Notes under the pieces: model-generated
Told to the model about the DNA's origin: nothing
Database searches by the model: none
Seen by the model: only the letters and a program-made list of their open reading frames with translations
Shown here: piece after piece, positions 58 through 55,217 of the stretch
How positions within the stretch are numbered: the first letter of the stretch is position 1
Layout: each line of letters begins with the position of its first letter
Position numbers and translations under genes: made by a program
DNA from: an uncultured Bacilli bacterium
Lineage (GTDB): Bacteria > Bacillota_I > Bacilli_A > RF39 > UBA660
Assembly: GCA_934101275.1 (NCBI GenBank)
Contig: CAKOQM010000001.1
Location: forward strand, 5,371-69,370
Length of the DNA stretch: 64,000 nt
Direction: 5' to 3'

Positions 58-2052
58 ATGAAAATGCAACTTGAAGGGCTCATTTATAATGATGATGGCG
101 TTTATAAATTGTTTCCTAAACATTATAAAGTTGTCTCATTAGAACAAATGATGTATAAGAAAATAGAAAAAAAGGCTTGTTTTAAAAATGATAAGAATGT
201 ACTGATTCCTATTGAATCTAAAAATTTAAATGGCGCTATGGTGGGAGATATTGTTGTTTTAGATGAAAAAAGACGACAGGTAAAAAAGATATTAAAACGT
301 AAGATTTCGAACATTCATTGTGAGGTTATCTTAGAAGACGGTTTAAAAAAACTTAAACCTCTACGTATTTTAGGAGATGATCATCTTCAAGTAAGGATAT
401 CTTATAAAGATATGAAACATCTTGTTGTTGGAGATATTGTACTCGTTTCTTTAACGAATGAAAAATATGATTCTTTTTATGAAGCTAATATGATCGAAAA
501 AATAGGCCATAAAGATGATCCTGATCTTGCATTAAATATTATTGCCTCTAATCATGGGTTTAAGCTTTCACATTCAAAAGAAGCTCTTACAGAGGCCAAA
601 GAGCTACCAACCAAAGTAACTCCAAGCGATCTTGTCGGTCGTGTTGATTTAAGGAAAGAAGAAATTTTCACCATTGACGGCATTTACACAAAAGATATGG
701 ATGACGCGGTAGGCCTAAAAAAACTTTCGAATGGTGATTATGAACTGACAGTTTCTATTGCAGATGTTAGTCATTATATAAAACCAGGAAGTGCTCTTTG
801 GAGGGAAGCTGCGGCAAGAAGTACCTCTTTATATATGGTAAATTCTGTTATTCCTATGTTTCCACATATTCTTTCAAATGGTATTTGTTCTTTAAATGAA
901 AAGGAAGATCGTTTGGCACTCACTTGTTTTATCAAACTAAATTCTAAAGGAAAGATTTTAAACTATCATGTTCTTCCAACTGTTATTAATTCAAAGAAAA
1001 AAATGAATTATACCGATGTGGAGAAGGTTTTAAATGGCGAAAAAGTAACAGGCTATGAGGACTATGAAAATACATTAAAAACGATGTATGAACTTTCTAA
1101 AATATTAAAAGAAAAACGAGATGCTTTACCATTTTTATCAGGGGATATTTCCTATACTTTTGATGAAAATAAAAAAATAATTGATTTTAACCGTCAAAAA
1201 AATAATGAAGCAATGGGCATCATCGAGGAATTTATGATTTTAGCTAATGTATGTATGGCTAAATATTCTACTTTTCTTGGCATGCCAACACCTTATCGTA
1301 TTCATGAAAAACCTGATGAGTATAAAATCGATGAACTTTTTGAGACTTTAGCTAAAAGTGGATATCCTATTTCAGATTGTAAAAGTCAAAGTCTTTATTT
1401 AACACTTCATATGATTTTAGATAAATATAAAGATAGTTTAGATTATAATTATATATCAAGTTTAATCTTAAAAAGCATGAAAAGAGCCAAATATAGTTCT
1501 TATAATGAAGGACACTACGCCTTAAAAGAACCTTATTATGCCCATTTTACGAGCCCGATCAGAAGATTTCCAGATTTACTCCTCCATTATCAAATTCATA
1601 CGGTTTTAGAAAATCAATATCCTGTAAAATGTATAAAAGAAGGTCAAATGGAAGAATTATGCGTGCATGCTAGTTTTATGGAACAATCCGCGGATGCTGC
1701 CGAAAAAGAAGCTGATGAATATACTCTTTTAAAATACATGCAACGACATCCCGAAAGACTTTATCAAGGCTATATTAAAGAACTTGGGGATAATTACATA
1801 CATGTTTTAACCAACGAGGGTATTAAAGGTCGGATTCCTTATCATTGTTTACCAGATAACCTTATTATTTCACAGGAAAAGGGGGTCATATATTTCCACA
1901 AAGAGCCTTATTTAAAAGTAGGACACGTTTGTTTATTTAAACTGCTTAATGTTGATTGGTCTTCTAATGAAGTTACCTTTGATATTGAAAAAAATTTATC
2001 GATACGTACGTTTAATAAAGATTACAGCCGCGTTTTAAAAAGAATCCCTTAA
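58..2052 (+). CDS. rnr: Ribonuclease R / RNase II family (RNB domain) 3'-5' exoribonuclease
   Basis: 664 aa; RNB catalytic motif 'HYALKEPYYAHFTSPIRRFPDLLLH'; C-terminal S1-like region. Confidence 0.85.
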   Translation: MKMQLEGLIYNDDGVYKLFPKHYKVVSLEQMMYKKIEKKACFKNDKNVLIPIESKNLNGAMVGDIVVLDEKRRQVKKILKRKISNIHCEVILEDGLKKLKPLRILGDDHLQVRISYKDMKHLVVGDIVLVSLTNEKYDSFYEANMIEKIGHKDDPDLALNIIASNHGFKLSHSKEALTEAKELPTKVTPSDLVGRVDLRKEEIFTIDGIYTKDMDDAVGLKKLSNGDYELTVSIADVSHYIKPGSALWREAAARSTSLYMVNSVIPMFPHILSNGICSLNEKEDRLALTCFIKLNSKGKILNYHVLPTVINSKKKMNYTDVEKVLNGEKVTGYEDYENTLKTMYELSKILKEKRDALPFLSGDISYTFDENKKIIDFNRQKNNEAMGIIEEFMILANVCMAKYSTFLGMPTPYRIHEKPDEYKIDELFETLAKSGYPISDCKSQSLYLTLHMILDKYKDSLDYNYISSLILKSMKRAKYSSYNEGHYALKEPYYAHFTSPIRRFPDLLLHYQIHTVLENQYPVKCIKEGQMEELCVHASFMEQSADAAEKEADEYTLLKYMQRHPERLYQGYIKELGDNYIHVLTNEGIKGRIPYHCLPDNLIISQEKGVIYFHKEPYLKVGHVCLFKLLNVDWSSNEVTFDIEKNLSIRTFNKDYSRVLKRIP

Positions 2053-13697: not shown

Positions 13698-13760
13698 CTT
13701 GACGTTCGGGGGGGGGGTATCTGTTATAATCATCATAGGAAGACTATGGTGATTTTTTCT
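13698..13760 (+). promoter_or_regulatory. Promoter cassette with a G10 homopolymer in the -35/-10 spacer, followed by an inverted repeat and a T-run (copy A)
   Basis: TTGACG at 13698-13703; G10 at 13707-13716; extended -10 TGtTATAAT at 13721-13729 (20 nt spacer); inverted repeat atcatcatag/ctatggtgat at 13728-13752 then TTTTTT; a near-identical cassette lies at 51725-51795 on the minus strand. Confidence 0.6.
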
Positions 13761-13897
13761 TGCAAAAAATCACTATTACCCTTCACATTTATAACTAAAT
13801 GGTATTGAAATGTTATAATGTTTTATGTACTAAGTAAAAAGCGTTTAAAACGCACCATACTGTTACATACTAAAAAGAAAAAGGAGTTGTTCCATTT

Positions 13898-15505
13898 ATG
13901 GAAAAAAAGAGAAGAAATATTTTAATTACAATTGTTTTATTAATAGGTATCATCGCTGTTATAGGCGTCTCTTATGCTTTATGGGTATTGAACTTAACTC
14001 AAACTGGTCAAAATGATATTGTTTCATCATGTTTTAATATCACTTATGAAGATAAAGACAATATTAGTTTACAAAAGGCCTACCCAATCTTAGATGAAGA
14101 AGGAAAGAAATTAGTACCATATGAATTCACGATTACCAATTCTTGTGATTCCTATGCTTCTTTTAATGTTAATCTAGAAGTCTTAAATACCACGACTTTA
14201 ACAAACAACGATGCCGTTAAAGCTATGATATCATCAAAAACAAATGATACCGAGACAGAGATAACAACGAGTTTATTATCAAGTTATCAAACAACCACGA
14301 AAACCTTAGATAATGCTAAAATAGCATTTAATTTAACAACAGGCTATTTAAATGTAAAAGAATCTAAAACTTATACCTTAAGATTATGGTTAGACGAAAA
14401 TGTGGATATGAATACCGAAGGTGTTCAAAATGCTAAATTTAGTTCAAAAGTAGTTGTCACAACAAGCTATGCAGAAGAAATACCGAAATCTGCGGTAGAG
14501 ACAATAGTATCATTAGTAAGTGGAGCAGATATTAGTTCAACAGATGTTTATACAGTGCCAGATAAAGAAGGAGATAATTGTACATATACCTTCGTATATG
14601 ATGGAACGAGTGATAACAATTTAAGATATGTCGGATCAAATCCATGTAATTATATAAAAATAGATGATGAGTTATGGCGAATCGTTGGTGTGATGAATAG
14701 CATAGATGATGGCACAGGCAAGAAAGAAAGCCGTATAAAATTAATCCGGTCAGAGTCAATAGGAGGATATTCTTGGGATACATCCGATTCTAGCATAAAT
14801 GGAGGCTATGGTATAAATGAGTGGAGTCAAGCCGATTTAATGAAACTTTTAAATCCAGGGTATGAAAGTGAAAGCGTTGGAGGTTCTTTGTACTACAATG
14901 GTGGTTCAGGCACATGTTATAGTGGTCAAAGTAATACAACATCTTCTTGTGATTTTGCAAGTAGTGGCTTAAAAGAAAATTTAAAAGCATTAATAGGGGA
15001 TGCTATCTGGAATACCGGAAGTAACGATGGTGTCATATATGGGTATGATACAATAACTAGTAAATTCTATGAATTAGAAAGAAGTAATAATACAGGGAAG
15101 ATATGTTCATCAGGAAACTATTGTAATGATACCGTAGAAAGAACGACAACGTGGACAGGAAAAGTAGGATTAATATATCCTTCTGATTATGGATATGCGA
15201 CTAGTGGAAGAAGAGCTGCAAGTCAAAGCAGTTGCTCAAATGAAAAAATGTCTAATTGGATTGCTAGTTCTTATAGTGATTGCAGATCTAATGATTGGAT
15301 ATATAATTCATCTACTCAGTGGACTATTTTTCATTATGCGTTCTCTTCATCTGCTAGTGATGCGATGTATATTAGAGATACTGGAGACGTCAATACCAAC
15401 TATGTGGGTGTTAATAATGGTGTCCGTCCTTCTATTTATTTAAAACCTAATGTTTCTATTTTGTCTGGTGAAGGTACTTTGGAAGATCCCTATGTATTAG
15501 GATAA
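13898..15505 (+). CDS. Secreted/surface protein, paralogous family member A (N-terminal signal-anchor, Ser/Thr-rich, conserved C-terminal module)
   Basis: 535 aa; 'KKRRN' then TM then 'GVSYALW'; 'YTLRLWLDENV' block shared with the 51404 ORF; C-terminal 'GVRPSIYLKPNVSILSGEGTLEDPYVLG'; RBS AAAGGAG. Confidence 0.8.
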   Translation: MEKKRRNILITIVLLIGIIAVIGVSYALWVLNLTQTGQNDIVSSCFNITYEDKDNISLQKAYPILDEEGKKLVPYEFTITNSCDSYASFNVNLEVLNTTTLTNNDAVKAMISSKTNDTETEITTSLLSSYQTTTKTLDNAKIAFNLTTGYLNVKESKTYTLRLWLDENVDMNTEGVQNAKFSSKVVVTTSYAEEIPKSAVETIVSLVSGADISSTDVYTVPDKEGDNCTYTFVYDGTSDNNLRYVGSNPCNYIKIDDELWRIVGVMNSIDDGTGKKESRIKLIRSESIGGYSWDTSDSSINGGYGINEWSQADLMKLLNPGYESESVGGSLYYNGGSGTCYSGQSNTTSSCDFASSGLKENLKALIGDAIWNTGSNDGVIYGYDTITSKFYELERSNNTGKICSSGNYCNDTVERTTTWTGKVGLIYPSDYGYATSGRRAASQSSCSNEKMSNWIASSYSDCRSNDWIYNSSTQWTIFHYAFSSSASDAMYIRDTGDVNTNYVGVNNGVRPSIYLKPNVSILSGEGTLEDPYVLG

Positions 15506-18575: not shown

Positions 18576-18699
18576 GCCAGTTAAGGCTTATTTTTGCCGT
18601 AAGTGGTGTCTTTAAGAAAAGGTTCTATAAAACGTTTGTATTCCCTATAGATTTATGCTAGAATAAAACATACTTATTTTAAAGGGGGGGAAAATAAGT

Positions 18700-19143
18700 A
18701 TGTTGGACGAAGATATAAAATTAAAAATAATACCTTGTAATTATGAAATAGTTAGGAACTTAGAAAAAGTTAGATTGGACGCTTTTGATAAGCCTAATGA
18801 AAATGTCGAAACGTTAACAAAAGAATTTTTTGCTGAAAATACATCTGGAATCATGGCACTTTACAAAGATAAGATTGTCGCAGGGTGTTATGTTTCTTCA
18901 CATGCTCCAGTACTTTATATCTCTTATTTATTTGTTCATCCAGATTATCAAAAGAAACATTATTACATTGGTAAGAAAATACTTTTAGAAACTTTAAAAA
19001 GAAAGATAGATTTTGAAAATTATTATTGTGAAAAATTTTCTTTCGCTCATATGATAGCTGAAAATAAAAAATTAAAAGAGCTTTACCTTTCTTGGGGATT
19101 TGAAGCTCCTTATCAAACATTACTTGTACGAAAAAATATATAA
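18700..19143 (+). CDS. GNAT-family N-acetyltransferase (putative)
   Basis: 147 aa; 'YISYLFVHPDYQKKHYYIGKKILLETL' resembles GNAT motif A; a G7 run sits in the RBS region (18684-18690). Confidence 0.5.
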   Translation: MLDEDIKLKIIPCNYEIVRNLEKVRLDAFDKPNENVETLTKEFFAENTSGIMALYKDKIVAGCYVSSHAPVLYISYLFVHPDYQKKHYYIGKKILLETLKRKIDFENYYCEKFSFAHMIAENKKLKELYLSWGFEAPYQTLLVRKNI

Positions 19144-50484: not shown

Positions 50485-51679
50485 TTAAGGCGTTTGAATG
50501 ATATAAGGACTACTTGAAGTACCAATTCCGCCACTTATTTTGGCATCCTCTTTTATATTTATAATAGCTGTGATAAGTCCAATAGAATATTTTAGAGCTT
50601 TATTTCCTTTTTTACTTGTCGTCACAGTAAAACGATCATTTTCATTAGGACATGTTAATATAGGCGATATCTTCCATTTGATATAAGCCTTTATCAGATT
50701 TATCACTTTCTTCTTCTGTTTGATTAGCACATAGCCACTTAAAGTGTATTTTCTCGTTTTTATAGATGTGCCACCAAATCTGGTTGCAGTACATCTGTAA
50801 AACTTGCTTTTGAAAGCTCATATACAGATACACAATTTGAAGTTGCTTTCCAAATGGTGACAATGTCTTGACAACTTGTTGCATAACCTGCATTACAAAA
50901 ATAATACTTGGCATTTGTATAATCTAATGTTGTCAGATCTAATTGTTCTACATTCGTTAAGACATATTTACCTGTCTCACTATTATTAAAGGTATAGCCG
51001 GTTCCAATAGGAAGTAAGACATAAGAAGAACTTAAATTTTTAAATCTCTCATCATTATCTTTTAAGGCTACTAAGTCAGGATGAGGCATCGTAATAGATA
51101 CATTAGATGTTGTACTCGATTTACTTTCATTCCATATTAAGATACTGATGGTTACTTTGGATAAAAACATTGTGTTCATAGCATCTGTGTCTTCTGCTGT
51201 TACATTTTCATCCATCCATAATCTTAAAGTGTAATCGGAACTGTCTTCCGTTCCTAAAGTACCTTTTAATAAAATTTTAGAGGTGGTTACATTATCTAAA
51301 ATTACTTCTGTACTTTCTAAATCCTTTAAATTTGTCATAGCTTCATTATTTACCATAGCTTTTATGTATTTATAAGGCATAGTTATCTCTTTTAATATTT
51401 CCAAGTTAATAGTGTAACTTAAAAATAAATCACAGGTATTTGTTATAGTAAAGCTATAAGGAGTTAGCTTTTTTCCTTCTTCATCACTTATTGGATAAGC
51501 TTTTTCTAAATTAATATCATTTTTTCATTTGTTAAAGACAAACTTAGACAGCTCGTTACTAACTTATTTGGATTATTCTGCGAAAATGTTAAAAACAAAT
51601 AGGCATAAGAGATGCCTATGACACAAACTATTAATAATCCTATTCCGAGTAACAATACTATTTTTTCCTTTTTATTCAT
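50485..51679 (-). pseudogene. Decayed paralog of the 13898 surface-protein gene: frameshift at an A6 tract plus downstream stop and frame break
   Basis: N-terminal ORF (ATG 51679) 'MNKKEKIVLLLGIGLLIVCVIGISYAYLFLTFSQNNPNKLVTSCLSLSLTNEK' stops just after the run gaaaaaatgat; one extra A would fuse it to 'NDINLEKAYPISDEEGKKLTPYSFTITNTCD...YTLRLWMDENV...' (ORF 50760-51404); the 50485-50730 ORF ends 'ISGGIGTSSSPYIIQTP', like the 13898 C-terminus 'LSGEGTLEDPYVLG'. Confidence 0.65.
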
Positions 51680-51724
51680 TTGAAACAGACTTCTTTATTT
51701 CTAGTAAAAGTAAAGCCAAGTAAT

Positions 51725-51795
51725 TTTTACGCACAAAAAATCACCATAGACTTCCTATGATGATTATAAAAGAACCCCCCCTCCCCGAACGCCAA
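51725..51795 (-). promoter_or_regulatory. Promoter cassette, copy B: G4-A-G7 tract in a 21-nt -35/-10 spacer, then an inverted repeat and a T-run
   Basis: Minus strand: TTGGCG (51795-51790), ggggaggggggg (51786-51775), TATAAT (51768-51763), inverted repeat atcatcatag/ctatggtgat, then tttttt; about 85% identical to 13698-13770. Confidence 0.6.
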
Positions 51796-52089
51796 GGGGA
51801 TTTTGGAAAAAGTTGCTATTAGTAACTTTCTGTATGATTTTATGTTGTATAAAAATAACGGGTATTTTAATATATTTTTCTTTGTAACAATTTCATAACC
51901 GTTTTCTGATCCGAGGTCCATTTATTGCATGTACTAGCCTGTTCATCACATAAACCTCCACAGCAAAAACTATTACAATTTGAACAAGTATGTTTAATAC
52001 TATTAGCAAGTTTATTAGCCATAAGTGTACAAAGGCATAAGTAAATTAAATCCTCATCATATGTCTTTTTAGAACCCAATTTTTTTTAA

Positions 52090-53363: not shown

Positions 53364-53714
53364 CTAATTTTTAGGTTTAAAAATAAAAGATAAGACAAAA
53401 GCAAAAATAACAGCACTCGTTATTGCCGCGGAACTTTTGACAAGTAAACCACTAAAGAGACCTAAAATTCCCATTTCATGGTAACCTTCTATAACACTTT
53501 GATAAAGCATATTACCAAAGTTAGAAATCAAAATCGTCGCGCCTGCTCCTCCAAAAGATATAAGTTTTGGATAAAGGCCAAAGAAAGCTAAAATAGCCCC
53601 TAAAACAGTAAACATAGAAGTGATATGGCCAGGTGTTAATTTTGTATTATCTAAGATAAGTTGGGCGACAAGACAAAAAAGACCTGTGACCAAAAAAGCA
53701 TTTATATAAATCAT
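53364..53714 (-). CDS. spoVAEB: Stage V sporulation protein AE (SpoVAEb-type)
   Basis: 116 aa membrane protein; 'FGGAGATILISNFGNMLYQSVIEG' SpoVAC/SpoVAEb family core. Confidence 0.7.
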   Translation of the reverse strand: MIYINAFLVTGLFCLVAQLILDNTKLTPGHITSMFTVLGAILAFFGLYPKLISFGGAGATILISNFGNMLYQSVIEGYHEMGILGLFSGLLVKSSAAITSAVIFAFVLSFIFKPKN

Positions 53715-54691
53715 TTTGTGACCTCCAAACTAACAGCATGAGCAATGGCTGGAATTGTTATTTTTTGATTAACAAGAAAAGGATTATGTAAGGAACCCGT
53801 TCCTATAATCAAAATACGATGATACTTATTAGATTTTAAGATTTTTCCAAATAAATAAAGTGGTAAAGCAACAGGGCCGCTGGCACCTGCATTTGTTTCT
53901 TCCTGATTTTTTAAATATAATTCGCAGCCAGCATCTAAATGTTTTGTAAGTTTTATGTGATAGGCTTGTTTTAAATATTCTTTTAATATTTTTGATCCAA
54001 TACAACCTAAGTCTCCTGTTAAAATAAGATCATAATAATCTATAGAACGTTTCATTTCCTTTAAATGTTCATTTAAAACATCCGCGGCAGCAGGGGCCAT
54101 GATCGCTCCCATATGGCTTGTATCGTTTTGTCCCATATCAATAACTTTACCAATCGTATAACTTTCTATTTTTATAGAAGAAGGCTCCTTTGTAAGTAAA
54201 ACACTAACACTACCCGTGGCCGTAAACGTCGCAGTTAAGGGTCTTGGCGCGCCGTATTCAATAGGATAACGAAATTGCTTTTCAGCCGATAAATTATGTG
54301 ATGATGTCACACAGATTCCTAAAGCTTTTGTTTTATTTTCGAGAAATTCCGCGGCTAGAAATAGACTTTCCACAAAAGATGCGCAGGCGGAATAAACACC
54401 TAAATAAGGTATATTATAATAACGAGCCGCATAACTAGATGTTCCAATTTGATTCGATAAGTCCCCTGAAACAAGTAAAGAAATCTGACTTGGTAACAGG
54501 TGATTTTTTTCTAGTAAATTATCTACAGCAACTTTTTGCATTTTAATTTCTGCTTGTTCAAATGTACTTGCTTTAAAATAAAAATCATCTAAAGTCATAT
54601 CATAATCTTTTACACTCCCCTCTTTTTCGAAAGGTCCCGCAATTGTAAAAGTATCTTTGATATAGACATTATTTATTTTTTTACTAGCCAT
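53711..54691 (-). CDS. spoVAD: Stage V sporulation protein AD
   Basis: 326 aa; thiolase/ketoacyl-synthase-like fold, 'MASKKINNVYIKDTFTIAGPFEKEG'; overlapping starts and stops with its neighbours. Confidence 0.8.
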   Translation of the reverse strand: MASKKINNVYIKDTFTIAGPFEKEGSVKDYDMTLDDFYFKASTFEQAEIKMQKVAVDNLLEKNHLLPSQISLLVSGDLSNQIGTSSYAARYYNIPYLGVYSACASFVESLFLAAEFLENKTKALGICVTSSHNLSAEKQFRYPIEYGAPRPLTATFTATGSVSVLLTKEPSSIKIESYTIGKVIDMGQNDTSHMGAIMAPAAADVLNEHLKEMKRSIDYYDLILTGDLGCIGSKILKEYLKQAYHIKLTKHLDAGCELYLKNQEETNAGASGPVALPLYLFGKILKSNKYHRILIIGTGSLHNPFLVNQKITIPAIAHAVSLEVTK

Positions 54692-55121
54692 AAATGATCA
54701 CCCCTAAAATTCCTAAGAAAAAGGCACTTACCATACCGTATAATAATACACTTCCTGCCAAGCGAAAAAAATTAGAACCAAGACCTGTAATAAGGCCATC
54801 ACGTCTATAATCTAAGGCGGCTGAAGTAACCGAATGGGCAAATCCTGTTGTTGGTAAAAAAAGACCGGCCTGACACTTACTTACCCATGTATCAAAAAAG
54901 CCTAACGAGGTCAAAAAACTAGAAGCAAATATCATTGTAATGCAAAGCCATACAAAAGCTTCTTTTTGGGGAATACCAAAACAATTTTCTAACACCGTCA
55001 CAAAAATTTGACCCATTAATCCTATTAATCCTCCCACGAAAAAAGAAATAAAAGCACGTTTCATTTTAGGCTCTTTTGGTTTTAACTCATCCACTAATTT
55101 TTGATATTCATCTTTATTCAT
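54684..55121 (-). CDS. spoVAC: Stage V sporulation protein AC
   Basis: ATG at 55121 behind RBS AGGAGGA; membrane protein 'FISFFVGGLIGLMGQ...LFLPTTGFAHSVTSAALDYRRDG'. Confidence 0.75.
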   Translation of the reverse strand: MNKDEYQKLVDELKPKEPKMKRAFISFFVGGLIGLMGQIFVTVLENCFGIPQKEAFVWLCITMIFASSFLTSLGFFDTWVSKCQAGLFLPTTGFAHSVTSAALDYRRDGLITGLGSNFFRLAGSVLLYGMVSAFFLGILGVIIYG

Positions 55122-55217
55122 ATCTGTCCTCCTAGCCCTAGTATGGAATGTTTTTTTAAAATTATACCCATAGACAGGCAATCAAATGTATGGTAGGATT
55201 ATAGACGAGGTGTAGAA

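Follow-up and report, generated by a model that had tools for sequence, protein, structure and literature searches.

The question raised by this locus is whether a run of guanines lodged between two promoter-like hexamers, and found twice in one stretch of DNA, marks a phase-variable gene family, as a first-pass annotation had claimed, or whether it serves some other role. The stretch, referred to here as the window, comprises 64,000 nt of a contig from an uncultured Bacilli bacterium (CAKOQM010000001.1). Its GC content is 29.7%, at which chance would give 6e-4 runs of G10 in the window.

Two copies of one cassette

The claim that the window holds a second copy of the cassette is borne out. 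Copy B (51795-51735, minus strand) and copy A (13698-13758, plus strand) are 90.3% identical over 62 columns with one gap (blastn-short, E = 4e-14), slightly above the ~85% reported at first, and the 17-mer ATAATCATCATAGGAAG singled out in that annotation occurs exactly twice in the window, once in each copy; allowing for up to three mismatches it has four matches, against 0.23 expected from shuffles. A profile of the cassette finds copy B with E = 1e-17 (nhmmer). The resemblance is real, and chance is ruled out. It is also sharply bounded: the 60 nt that precede the -35 box have 32 of 67 columns identical, which is no meaningful similarity, the leaders 3' of the T-run are unalignable, and the two coding regions share 57% identity over their first 560 nt, so that the likeness of the cassettes far exceeds that of their flanks or coding regions. 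Copy B and its gene comprise the following features.

51735..51795 (-): cassette copy B, spanning the -35-like box through the last T of the T-run (blastn-short, nhmmer)
51790..51795 (-): -35-like hexamer TTGGCG; of the 10 other variants, 9 have TTGACA or TTGACG here and L019 has TCGACA
51775..51786 (-): G block GGGGAGGGGGGG (G4-A-G7), within a 21-nt spacer
51763..51768 (-): -10 hexamer TATAAT, without the upstream TG that is present in 10 of 11 variants
51739..51765 (-): hairpin 1 (AATCATCATAG / CTATGGTGATT), its 5' arm starting within the -10 box, followed by T6 (terminator scan, folding)
51735..51745 (-): GGTGA plus T6, Shine-Dalgarno-like; in paralogs L018, L019 and L017b it serves as ribosome-binding site and spacer
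51719..51745 (-): hairpin 2 (GGUGAUUUUU with AAAAAUUACU), the predicted fold of transcripts starting at ~51756, mutually exclusive with hairpin 1
50485..51679 (-): copy B family gene, disrupted, in three reading frames, with frameshifts near 51526 and near 50780

Read on the minus strand, copy B runs TTGGCG ttc GGGGAGGGGGGG ttcttt TATAAT catcataggaagtctatGGTGA TTTTTT. The layout described earlier is thus confirmed, as is the 21-nt spacer, but the two architectures are not the same throughout, as the -35 box of copy B differs by one base from that of copy A and the TG is absent. The spacer of copy A measures 20 nt.

13699..13758 (+): cassette copy A, consisting of TTGACG, ttc, G10 (13708-13717), tatctgt, TATAAT (13725-13730) and, at its end, T6
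13728-13754 (+): hairpin 1 of copy A
13746..13776 (+): hairpin 2 of copy A, in which AUGGUGAUUUUUU and AAAAAAUCACUAU form a stem of 13 bp (-14.9 kcal/mol, z = -4.3)
13811..13819 (+): P2, a proximal extended -10 promoter candidate (TGTTATAAT), kept in orthologs without the cassette
13898..15505 (+): gene A, 535 aa, with an N-terminal membrane anchor or signal extending to GVSYALW, a beta-sandwich domain and a Cys-rich C-terminal domain

The product of gene A has no sequence match in Pfam, NCBIfam or the PDB, and more than 4000 relatives in metagenome protein sets. Its AlphaFold model (pLDDT 68, pTM 0.68) gives weak Foldseek matches to archaeal TasA-like pilins. A comparison with TasA/camelysin-like secreted fibre proteins gave no sequence match and fold matches that are overall weak to moderate; the secreted proteins of the family may have TasA-like and lectin-like folds. 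We found no published description of the protein family or of the cassette in the literature.

The gene behind copy B had been called paralogous to gene A, which holds for parts of its length. Its N-terminal domain, ~190 aa long, is 35-43% identical to that of the gene A family, and ~100 aa in its C-terminal part are 25-28% identical to family homologs, but the sharing is limited to those parts and the gene carries at least two frameshifts. The first lies at an A6 run near 51526, where one added A would restore the frame; near 50780, the site of the second, there is no obvious slippery run. Unless the assembly is wrong in two places, this gene is a pseudogene. Copy B is itself the most degraded copy among all variants, and its mutated -35 box (TTGGCG), missing TG, interrupted tract (G4-A-G7), 21-nt spacer and two gene frameshifts lead us to read it not as an active switch but as a decaying copy, most likely one stuck in a weak or off state; it appears to be dead, as does its gene.

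We note several other features of the window. Just upstream of copy B, a Cys-rich ORF of 70 aa (CSNCNSFCCGGLCDEQASTCNKW; 51867-52079, minus strand) has no family match. Gene orientation flips near 36 kb, from mostly plus to mostly minus, with the result that each cassette, together with its gene, is oriented oppositely to the one across this point. SpoVAC, SpoVAD and SpoVAEB genes are present at 53364-55181 (minus strand), and the organism is hence probably a spore-former. A third G run, G7 at 18684-18690, forms the loop of a 13-bp inverted repeat (ACATACTTATTTT / AAAATAAGTATGT; 18670-18704, plus strand), the 3' arm of which holds the ATG of a GNAT acetyltransferase ORF (18700-19143); the G7 is positioned like a ribosome-binding site, and the repeat could be a start-codon-masking hairpin.

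Distribution and variants of the cassette

A search for further copies places the cassette well beyond this window. A total of 54 loci were gathered from a genome scan, a JGI metagenome scan, which contributed one additional locus, and 12 exact-protein look-ups. The nhmmer profile of the cassette finds 26 places, which collapse to 11 distinct variants from at least five low-GC gut MAG lineages, on contigs that all have ~30% GC. Wherever downstream sequence is visible, the gene 3' of the cassette belongs to the same mosaic superfamily of secreted proteins; the contig of L016 stops 4 nt past the cassette, so its downstream gene is out of view. The cassette is hence a conserved 5' module of a gene family. 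Its consensus consists of TTGAC(A/G), a G block of 7-12 nt, a TG-extended TAnnnT, an 11-bp hairpin reaching from the -10 box to GGTGAT, and a T-run. The variants are given below with their tracts and spacers.

winA (copy A; also L001, L002): G10, 20-nt spacer
winB (copy B): G4AG7, 21-nt spacer
L017a: G10, 20-nt spacer
L017b: G10, 19-nt spacer; TATCAT -10 box, no T-run, before a paralog with a different N-domain
L020: G9, 19-nt spacer
L021-23: G10, 20-nt spacer; 3 samples, P0080 variant
L030-33: G10, 20-nt spacer; 4 samples, P0065 variant; cassette identical to L021-23, leaders slightly different
L024-28 and L034-36: GGAGGGG, 17-nt spacer; 8 samples, TATAGT -10 box
L037: GGGTGTGGG, 19-nt spacer; TATTCT -10 box
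L016: G9, 19-nt spacer
L018: G10, 20-nt spacer
L019: GGGGATGGG, 19-nt spacer; TCGACA -35 box

The cassette keeps a constant orientation relative to the gene, always 5' of it, and the genes on its own 5' side vary (topA, thiI, a divergent gene, others), similarity starting only a few bases before the -35 box. Protein look-ups also returned family loci without a cassette (P0019, P0089, P0051, P0107, P0124). The close orthologs L038/39 and L040-44 have just the proximal leader with its extended -10 box (P2), and in L040-44 an ordinary terminator occupies the position where the cassette would stand; L045-54 have a plain AT-rich promoter instead. The existence of such close orthologs identifies the cassette as an optional, exchangeable 5' module.

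An exchangeable module could also be a site of recombination or gene conversion, or a small mobile repeat, serving to shuffle 5' ends among family members or to flip the 38 kb that separate the two window copies. These copies are indeed mutually inverted, the family is a mosaic of recombined N- and C-terminal domains, three copies sit at contig ends in one MAG, and IS elements adjoin several loci. However, no recombinase gene is associated with the cassette, its orientation is uniformly 5' of the gene, and any multi-copy sequence would explain the contig breaks equally well. Viral contigs, phage records and plasmid records were scanned for the cassette and gave no matches, on which account the idea of a phage or plasmid repeat was dropped. 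We consider recombination or mobility very improbable, and the least probable of the explanations weighed here.

Several of these loci merit separate description. In L017, from a Hadza "uncultured Bacilli" MAG, a second cassette (626-690, plus strand; G10, TATCAT, no T-run) stands directly before a 475-aa paralog, which has a different N-terminal domain and the same C-terminal domain; the family is thus a mosaic, and the cassette is common to its sub-families. The cassettes of L016 (5-62), L018 (74-132) and L019 (106-164), all on the minus strand, lie at most ~170 nt from contig ends in a single MAG that bears a Muribaculaceae label despite contigs of 30% GC. These contigs break within or just after the conserved N-terminal coding region, and the breaks, together with the low GC, suggest that the genome has many copies and that the taxon label or the bin is wrong. 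In other species, family genes lie in operons beside the Tad-pilus genes TadE, a CbiA/ParA-type ATPase and T2SSE (L004, 5096-7620), and one family homolog is labelled Candidatus Ventrenecus sp. Transposases of IS elements (rve, Transposase_mut) are found 3' of the family gene at L024, L030, L034 and L035. The P0107 locus (L040-L044) has, ~1210 nt into the family gene and in five samples, an in-frame TGA in place of a Cys codon that is nearly invariant; the frame is intact beyond it, and a nonsense mutation fixed in the population and recoding are both possible.

A putative promoter overlapped by a hairpin

Hexamer matching alone was rejected as evidence for P1, the promoter suggested by the boxes of the cassette. 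Pairs of -35 and -10 boxes with at least 10 of 12 matches are found 15-28 times in the window at every spacing from 13 to 24 nt (19 and 15 times at 20 and 21 nt, respectively), and in this AT-rich sequence pairs of a quality equal to that of the cassette are hence frequent by chance at 19-21 nt. The window contains two perfect 12/12 pairs, both with a 17 nt spacing, and a simple promoter scan called neither copy of the cassette. It is instead the comparative pattern across variants that leads us to take P1 as a promoter. Positions 1, 2 and 6 of the -10 box are invariant in all 11 variants, whilst positions 3-5 vary (TATAAT, TAGAAT, TATAGT, TATCAT, TATTCT); the TG at -15/-14 is retained in 10 of 11, copy B being the sole exception, 9 of 11 have TTGACA or TTGACG as their -35 box, and this box is also about where the homology sets in. 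Compared with a sigma-A promoter, the cassette thus has TAnnnT throughout, TG in all variants save one and a conserved -35 box, but its spacing is 19-21 nt in all except the 17-nt alleles, against the 16-18 nt of such promoters. In L016, L018, L019 and L017b, moreover, the cassette abuts the start codon, leaving no space for another promoter, and GGTGAT, lying 5-8 nt before ATG or TTG, can be assigned as the ribosome-binding site from that position. From these comparisons, P1 is probably a genuine promoter module. At copy-A-type loci it lies upstream of the second candidate, P2, and as P2 is the sole promoter in cassette-less orthologs, P1 would be dispensable there.

Other candidates for this region were tried and rejected: a MerR-type operator in the spacer, which has no conserved dyad; a sigma-54 or alternative-sigma promoter, which the consensus does not match; and a leader peptide past the T-run (TTG/GTG uORFs), the frame and length of which are not conserved among copy A, L017 and L020.

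The inverted repeat and T-run had been described as parts of the promoter. They are better read as a putative terminator or element masking the ribosome-binding site. Hairpin 1 (AATCATCATAG / CTATGGTGATT), followed by T5-T8, is scored as an intrinsic terminator in both window copies by a terminator scan, and folds with -11.8 kcal/mol in copy B and -12.8 in copy A (z = -4.3). In an alignment of 10 sequences 97% of its cells are paired; two C-G pairs have become U-A pairs, both in L037, and the covariation hence depends on one divergent sequence. Four further changes give G-U pairs and one U-G pair is invariant across the 10 sequences. Such pairs work solely in the sense-strand RNA, which argues that hairpin 1 has been selected as RNA with its 5' arm included. 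This arm extends from the -10 box to the expected start of P1 (~13737 in copy A, ~51756 in copy B), and the hairpin would hence be formable solely by transcripts arriving from upstream. The window copies have the stem-loop and sense-strand U-run of an intrinsic terminator, and the T-run is absent from L017b. At the copy A and thiI loci, the interval that separates the cassette from the stop codon before it has no place for another terminator. A search of Rfam 15 gave no match in the window at the gathering threshold, and around copy A just chance-level scores at the E-value threshold.

These observations could be taken to mean that the window cassette is mainly a terminator or insulator of the upstream gene, with promoter boxes that are vestiges of an ancestral layout, gene A being transcribed from P2 and copy B being a relic. 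Hairpin 1 with its T-run is the sole terminator candidate after topA; in orthologs that lack the cassette, its place is taken by a plain terminator with P2 behind it; the compensatory changes and the G-U pairs suggest RNA-level selection, acting on a hairpin that has its 5' arm upstream of the presumed P1 start; and copy B has degraded boxes and a frameshifted gene. Such a reading nevertheless leaves unexplained the 40 conserved nt upstream of the hairpin, with their promoter-like substitutions and retained TG. In L016, L018, L019 and L017b, where the cassette is the only possible promoter, a terminator would shut the gene off, and L017b has kept its boxes and G10 without the T-run. We regard a terminator with vestigial boxes as distinctly unlikely.

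A structured leader RNA is also conceivable, in which the G run would itself be transcribed, pair with a downstream CCCUCC, enclose hairpin 1 and act as a riboregulator. RNAalifold does pair the G run with ACCCUCC in seven long-leader sequences, and the GGAGG of L024 faces CCUCC. But a single pair is changed on both sides (covariation term -0.68 kcal/mol), the C-rich partner is absent from the direct-type copies, winB and L037, the homology begins at the -35 box and hence comprises no conserved upstream promoter, and the region has no Rfam match at the gathering threshold. A riboregulator is therefore, in our estimation, highly unlikely.

What we propose instead is that the cassette serves as a portable 5' control module for a secreted or surface superfamily in uncultured low-GC gut Bacilli, built from three overlapping parts. 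The first would be P1, a sigma-A-type promoter with its -35 box TTGAC(A/G), its TG-extended -10 box TAnnnT and the G tract in the spacer. The second would be the imperfect inverted repeat, which runs from within the -10 box to GGTGAT and ends in the T-run. Read-through RNA from upstream would contain both arms, fold into the 11-bp hairpin with its U-run, terminate, and have its GGUGA ribosome-binding site hidden. RNA from P1, which we assume to start ~7 nt past the -10 box, would lack the 5' arm and escape termination, and in long-leader copies it would instead form a 5' stem-loop, hairpin 2. This second hairpin is predicted in all eight long-leader copies, as a 10-13-bp stem of (AU)GGUGAUUUUUU with a downstream AAAAAAU(C/U)AC(UAU), with z scores of -1.9 in copy B and -4.3 in copy A. 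The third part would be a slippage-prone G tract, able, like a contingency locus, to re-set the strength of P1 as time passes. Taken whole, this model of a sigma-A promoter overlapped by a terminator or RBS-masking hairpin, with spacing set by a slippage-prone tract, has in our judgement an even chance of being right.

The G tract and its known counterparts

The G tract is where the cassette changes in length. In type-A cassettes the 3 nt before and 7 nt after the G block are constant and the block itself measures 7, 9 or 10 nt, so that all length change sits in the tract. Spacers of 17, 19, 20 and 21 nt are found across paralogs and lineages, and L016 and L018, paralogs in one MAG, are a single G apart (G9 vs G10), a step which, with the confinement of change to the tract, fits slippage over evolutionary time. 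Homopolymers of about 8 nt or more can be considered capable of slipping; the G10 of copy A and the G9-G10 of other copies reach that length, and copy B keeps only G7. In sequence terms the tract also lies where its length could alter expression, between the -35 and -10 boxes, although the extended -10 box may make the spacing to the -35 box modulatory instead of a strict switch.

A comparison of tract lengths across populations, which the first-pass annotation had called for, gave no differences among 19 consensus assemblies from different samples, falling into four identical-protein groups: three have G10 (in 2, 3 and 4 samples) and one GGAGGGG (in 5+3 samples). Nor did any of the 11 variants combine a 16-18 nt spacer with a long uninterrupted tract, and an on/off cycle is hence unobserved. 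Uninterrupted tracts, G9-G10 in seven lineages, always come with spacers of 19-20 nt, and the sole 17-nt allele has the short, interrupted GGAGGGG with a perfect TTGACA box. Interrupted tracts of off-optimal spacing coincide with degraded boxes (TTGGCG and no TG in winB, TCGACA in L019, TATTCT in L037) and, in winB, with a frameshifted gene as well; in these small numbers, the interrupted 19-21 nt copies would look like locked-off ones. The notion of a phase-variable family thus retains its conserved cassette and its tract-confined length variation, but it has gained neither polymorphism within groups nor an "on" allele with a long tract. Switching by the G tract is plausible and unproven, and we lean somewhat against it.

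If the tract does not switch, it could be a fixed spacer of ~19-20 nt in a promoter that is either factor-dependent or constitutively low, its length being held by selection. Tracts are identical within each same-protein assembly group, uninterrupted ones cluster tightly at G9-G10 with 19-20 nt spacers in seven lineages, and the non-slippery, interrupted tracts of L019 and L037 likewise keep 19 nt, all as a fixed spacer would predict. On the other hand, a sister lineage has a 17-nt spacer with a 7-nt block, the spacer lacks the dyad symmetry that a MerR-type activator would call for (copy A does not keep the ACAG/CTGT pair), and boxes are degraded in the copies with interrupted tracts and 19-21 nt spacers. 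G9-G10 also matches the range typical of poly-G contingency tracts in Campylobacter, which we count against selection for a fixed length. We hold a fixed spacer to be unlikely. In a further reading, the cassette would be a self-insulated promoter for which 19-20 nt is the normal spacer, the G tract being the target of a tract-binding or DNA-twisting factor, or a structure-forming element, which licenses one member of a mosaic adhesin or fibre family at a time. This we think improbable, but if it were true, surface variation in uncultured gut Bacilli would obey a novel kind of control logic.

Should the tract switch or tune expression, uncultured low-GC gut commensals would share the spacer-slippage trick of Neisseria, Haemophilus, Bordetella and the mycoplasmas, the genes so controlled would belong to a large, unannotated secreted-protein family that has more than 4000 metagenome relatives, and TTGACR, a G run, TGnTAnnnT and then ATCATC...GGTGAT would provide a signature for finding such loci in MAGs. 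A promoter overlapping a terminator or RBS-masking hairpin would be a compact design for insulation. The practical value is modest at present. Because the population comparison came out negative, we liken the cassette to phase-variable promoters and do not call it a proven member of that class; for all its likeness to the slippage-prone promoters of pathogens, no rapid switching is seen.

The putative hairpin has its closest counterpart in the fold-back inhibition of IS10 and IS50, in which the element's transcripts start within an inverted repeat, and only those that enter from outside contain both arms and mask the ribosome-binding site. The inverted repeat of the cassette likewise spans the start site that we infer, with both arms present only in incoming transcripts. 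It is unlike IS10/IS50 in its terminator-like U-run, and in serving an ordinary gene family and not a transposase. For the tract, Campylobacter jejuni offers contingency tracts of G8-G11 in a low-GC genome, controlling surface structures; these lie mostly in coding regions, where they act by frameshift, unlike the tract of the cassette, which lies in a promoter spacer. Among gut commensals, a G-tract in Bifidobacterium breve is reported to be a replication-slippage on/off switch of pilus expression (PMC9187656).

Close in kind is the promoter of Neisseria meningitidis porA, in which a poly-G lies between the -35 and -10 boxes and for which it has been measured how tract length varies from clone to clone and how this affects transcript levels (PMC3899988). 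The cassette shares with porA a G homopolymer between the boxes of a surface-protein gene, and one-base changes in the porA tract alter the spacing; it differs in its constancy among close assemblies, its 19-21 nt spacers, its TG-extended -10 box and its host, a gut commensal of Gram-positive type. The fim promoters of Bordetella pertussis carry a poly-C tract, and hifA/hifB of Haemophilus influenzae have TA repeats that change the -35/-10 spacing (PMC3899988). In both, as in the cassette, a repeat tract lies in the promoter region, and the fim and hifA/hifB tracts control expression; the repeat type and the organism are different, and no activator site has been identified at the cassette. The vlp genes of Mycoplasma hyorhinis, finally, are a multigene family with a poly-A tract in a conserved promoter region, for which on/off switching is experimentally established (PMC10502178). 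While the vlp tract is poly-A and its products are lipoproteins, the cassette has poly-G, and no lipobox is evident in those N-terminal sequences of its family that were inspected; what the two systems have in common is a conserved 5' promoter block set before paralogous surface-protein genes, each copy with a homopolymer of its own, so that the states of different copies can differ.
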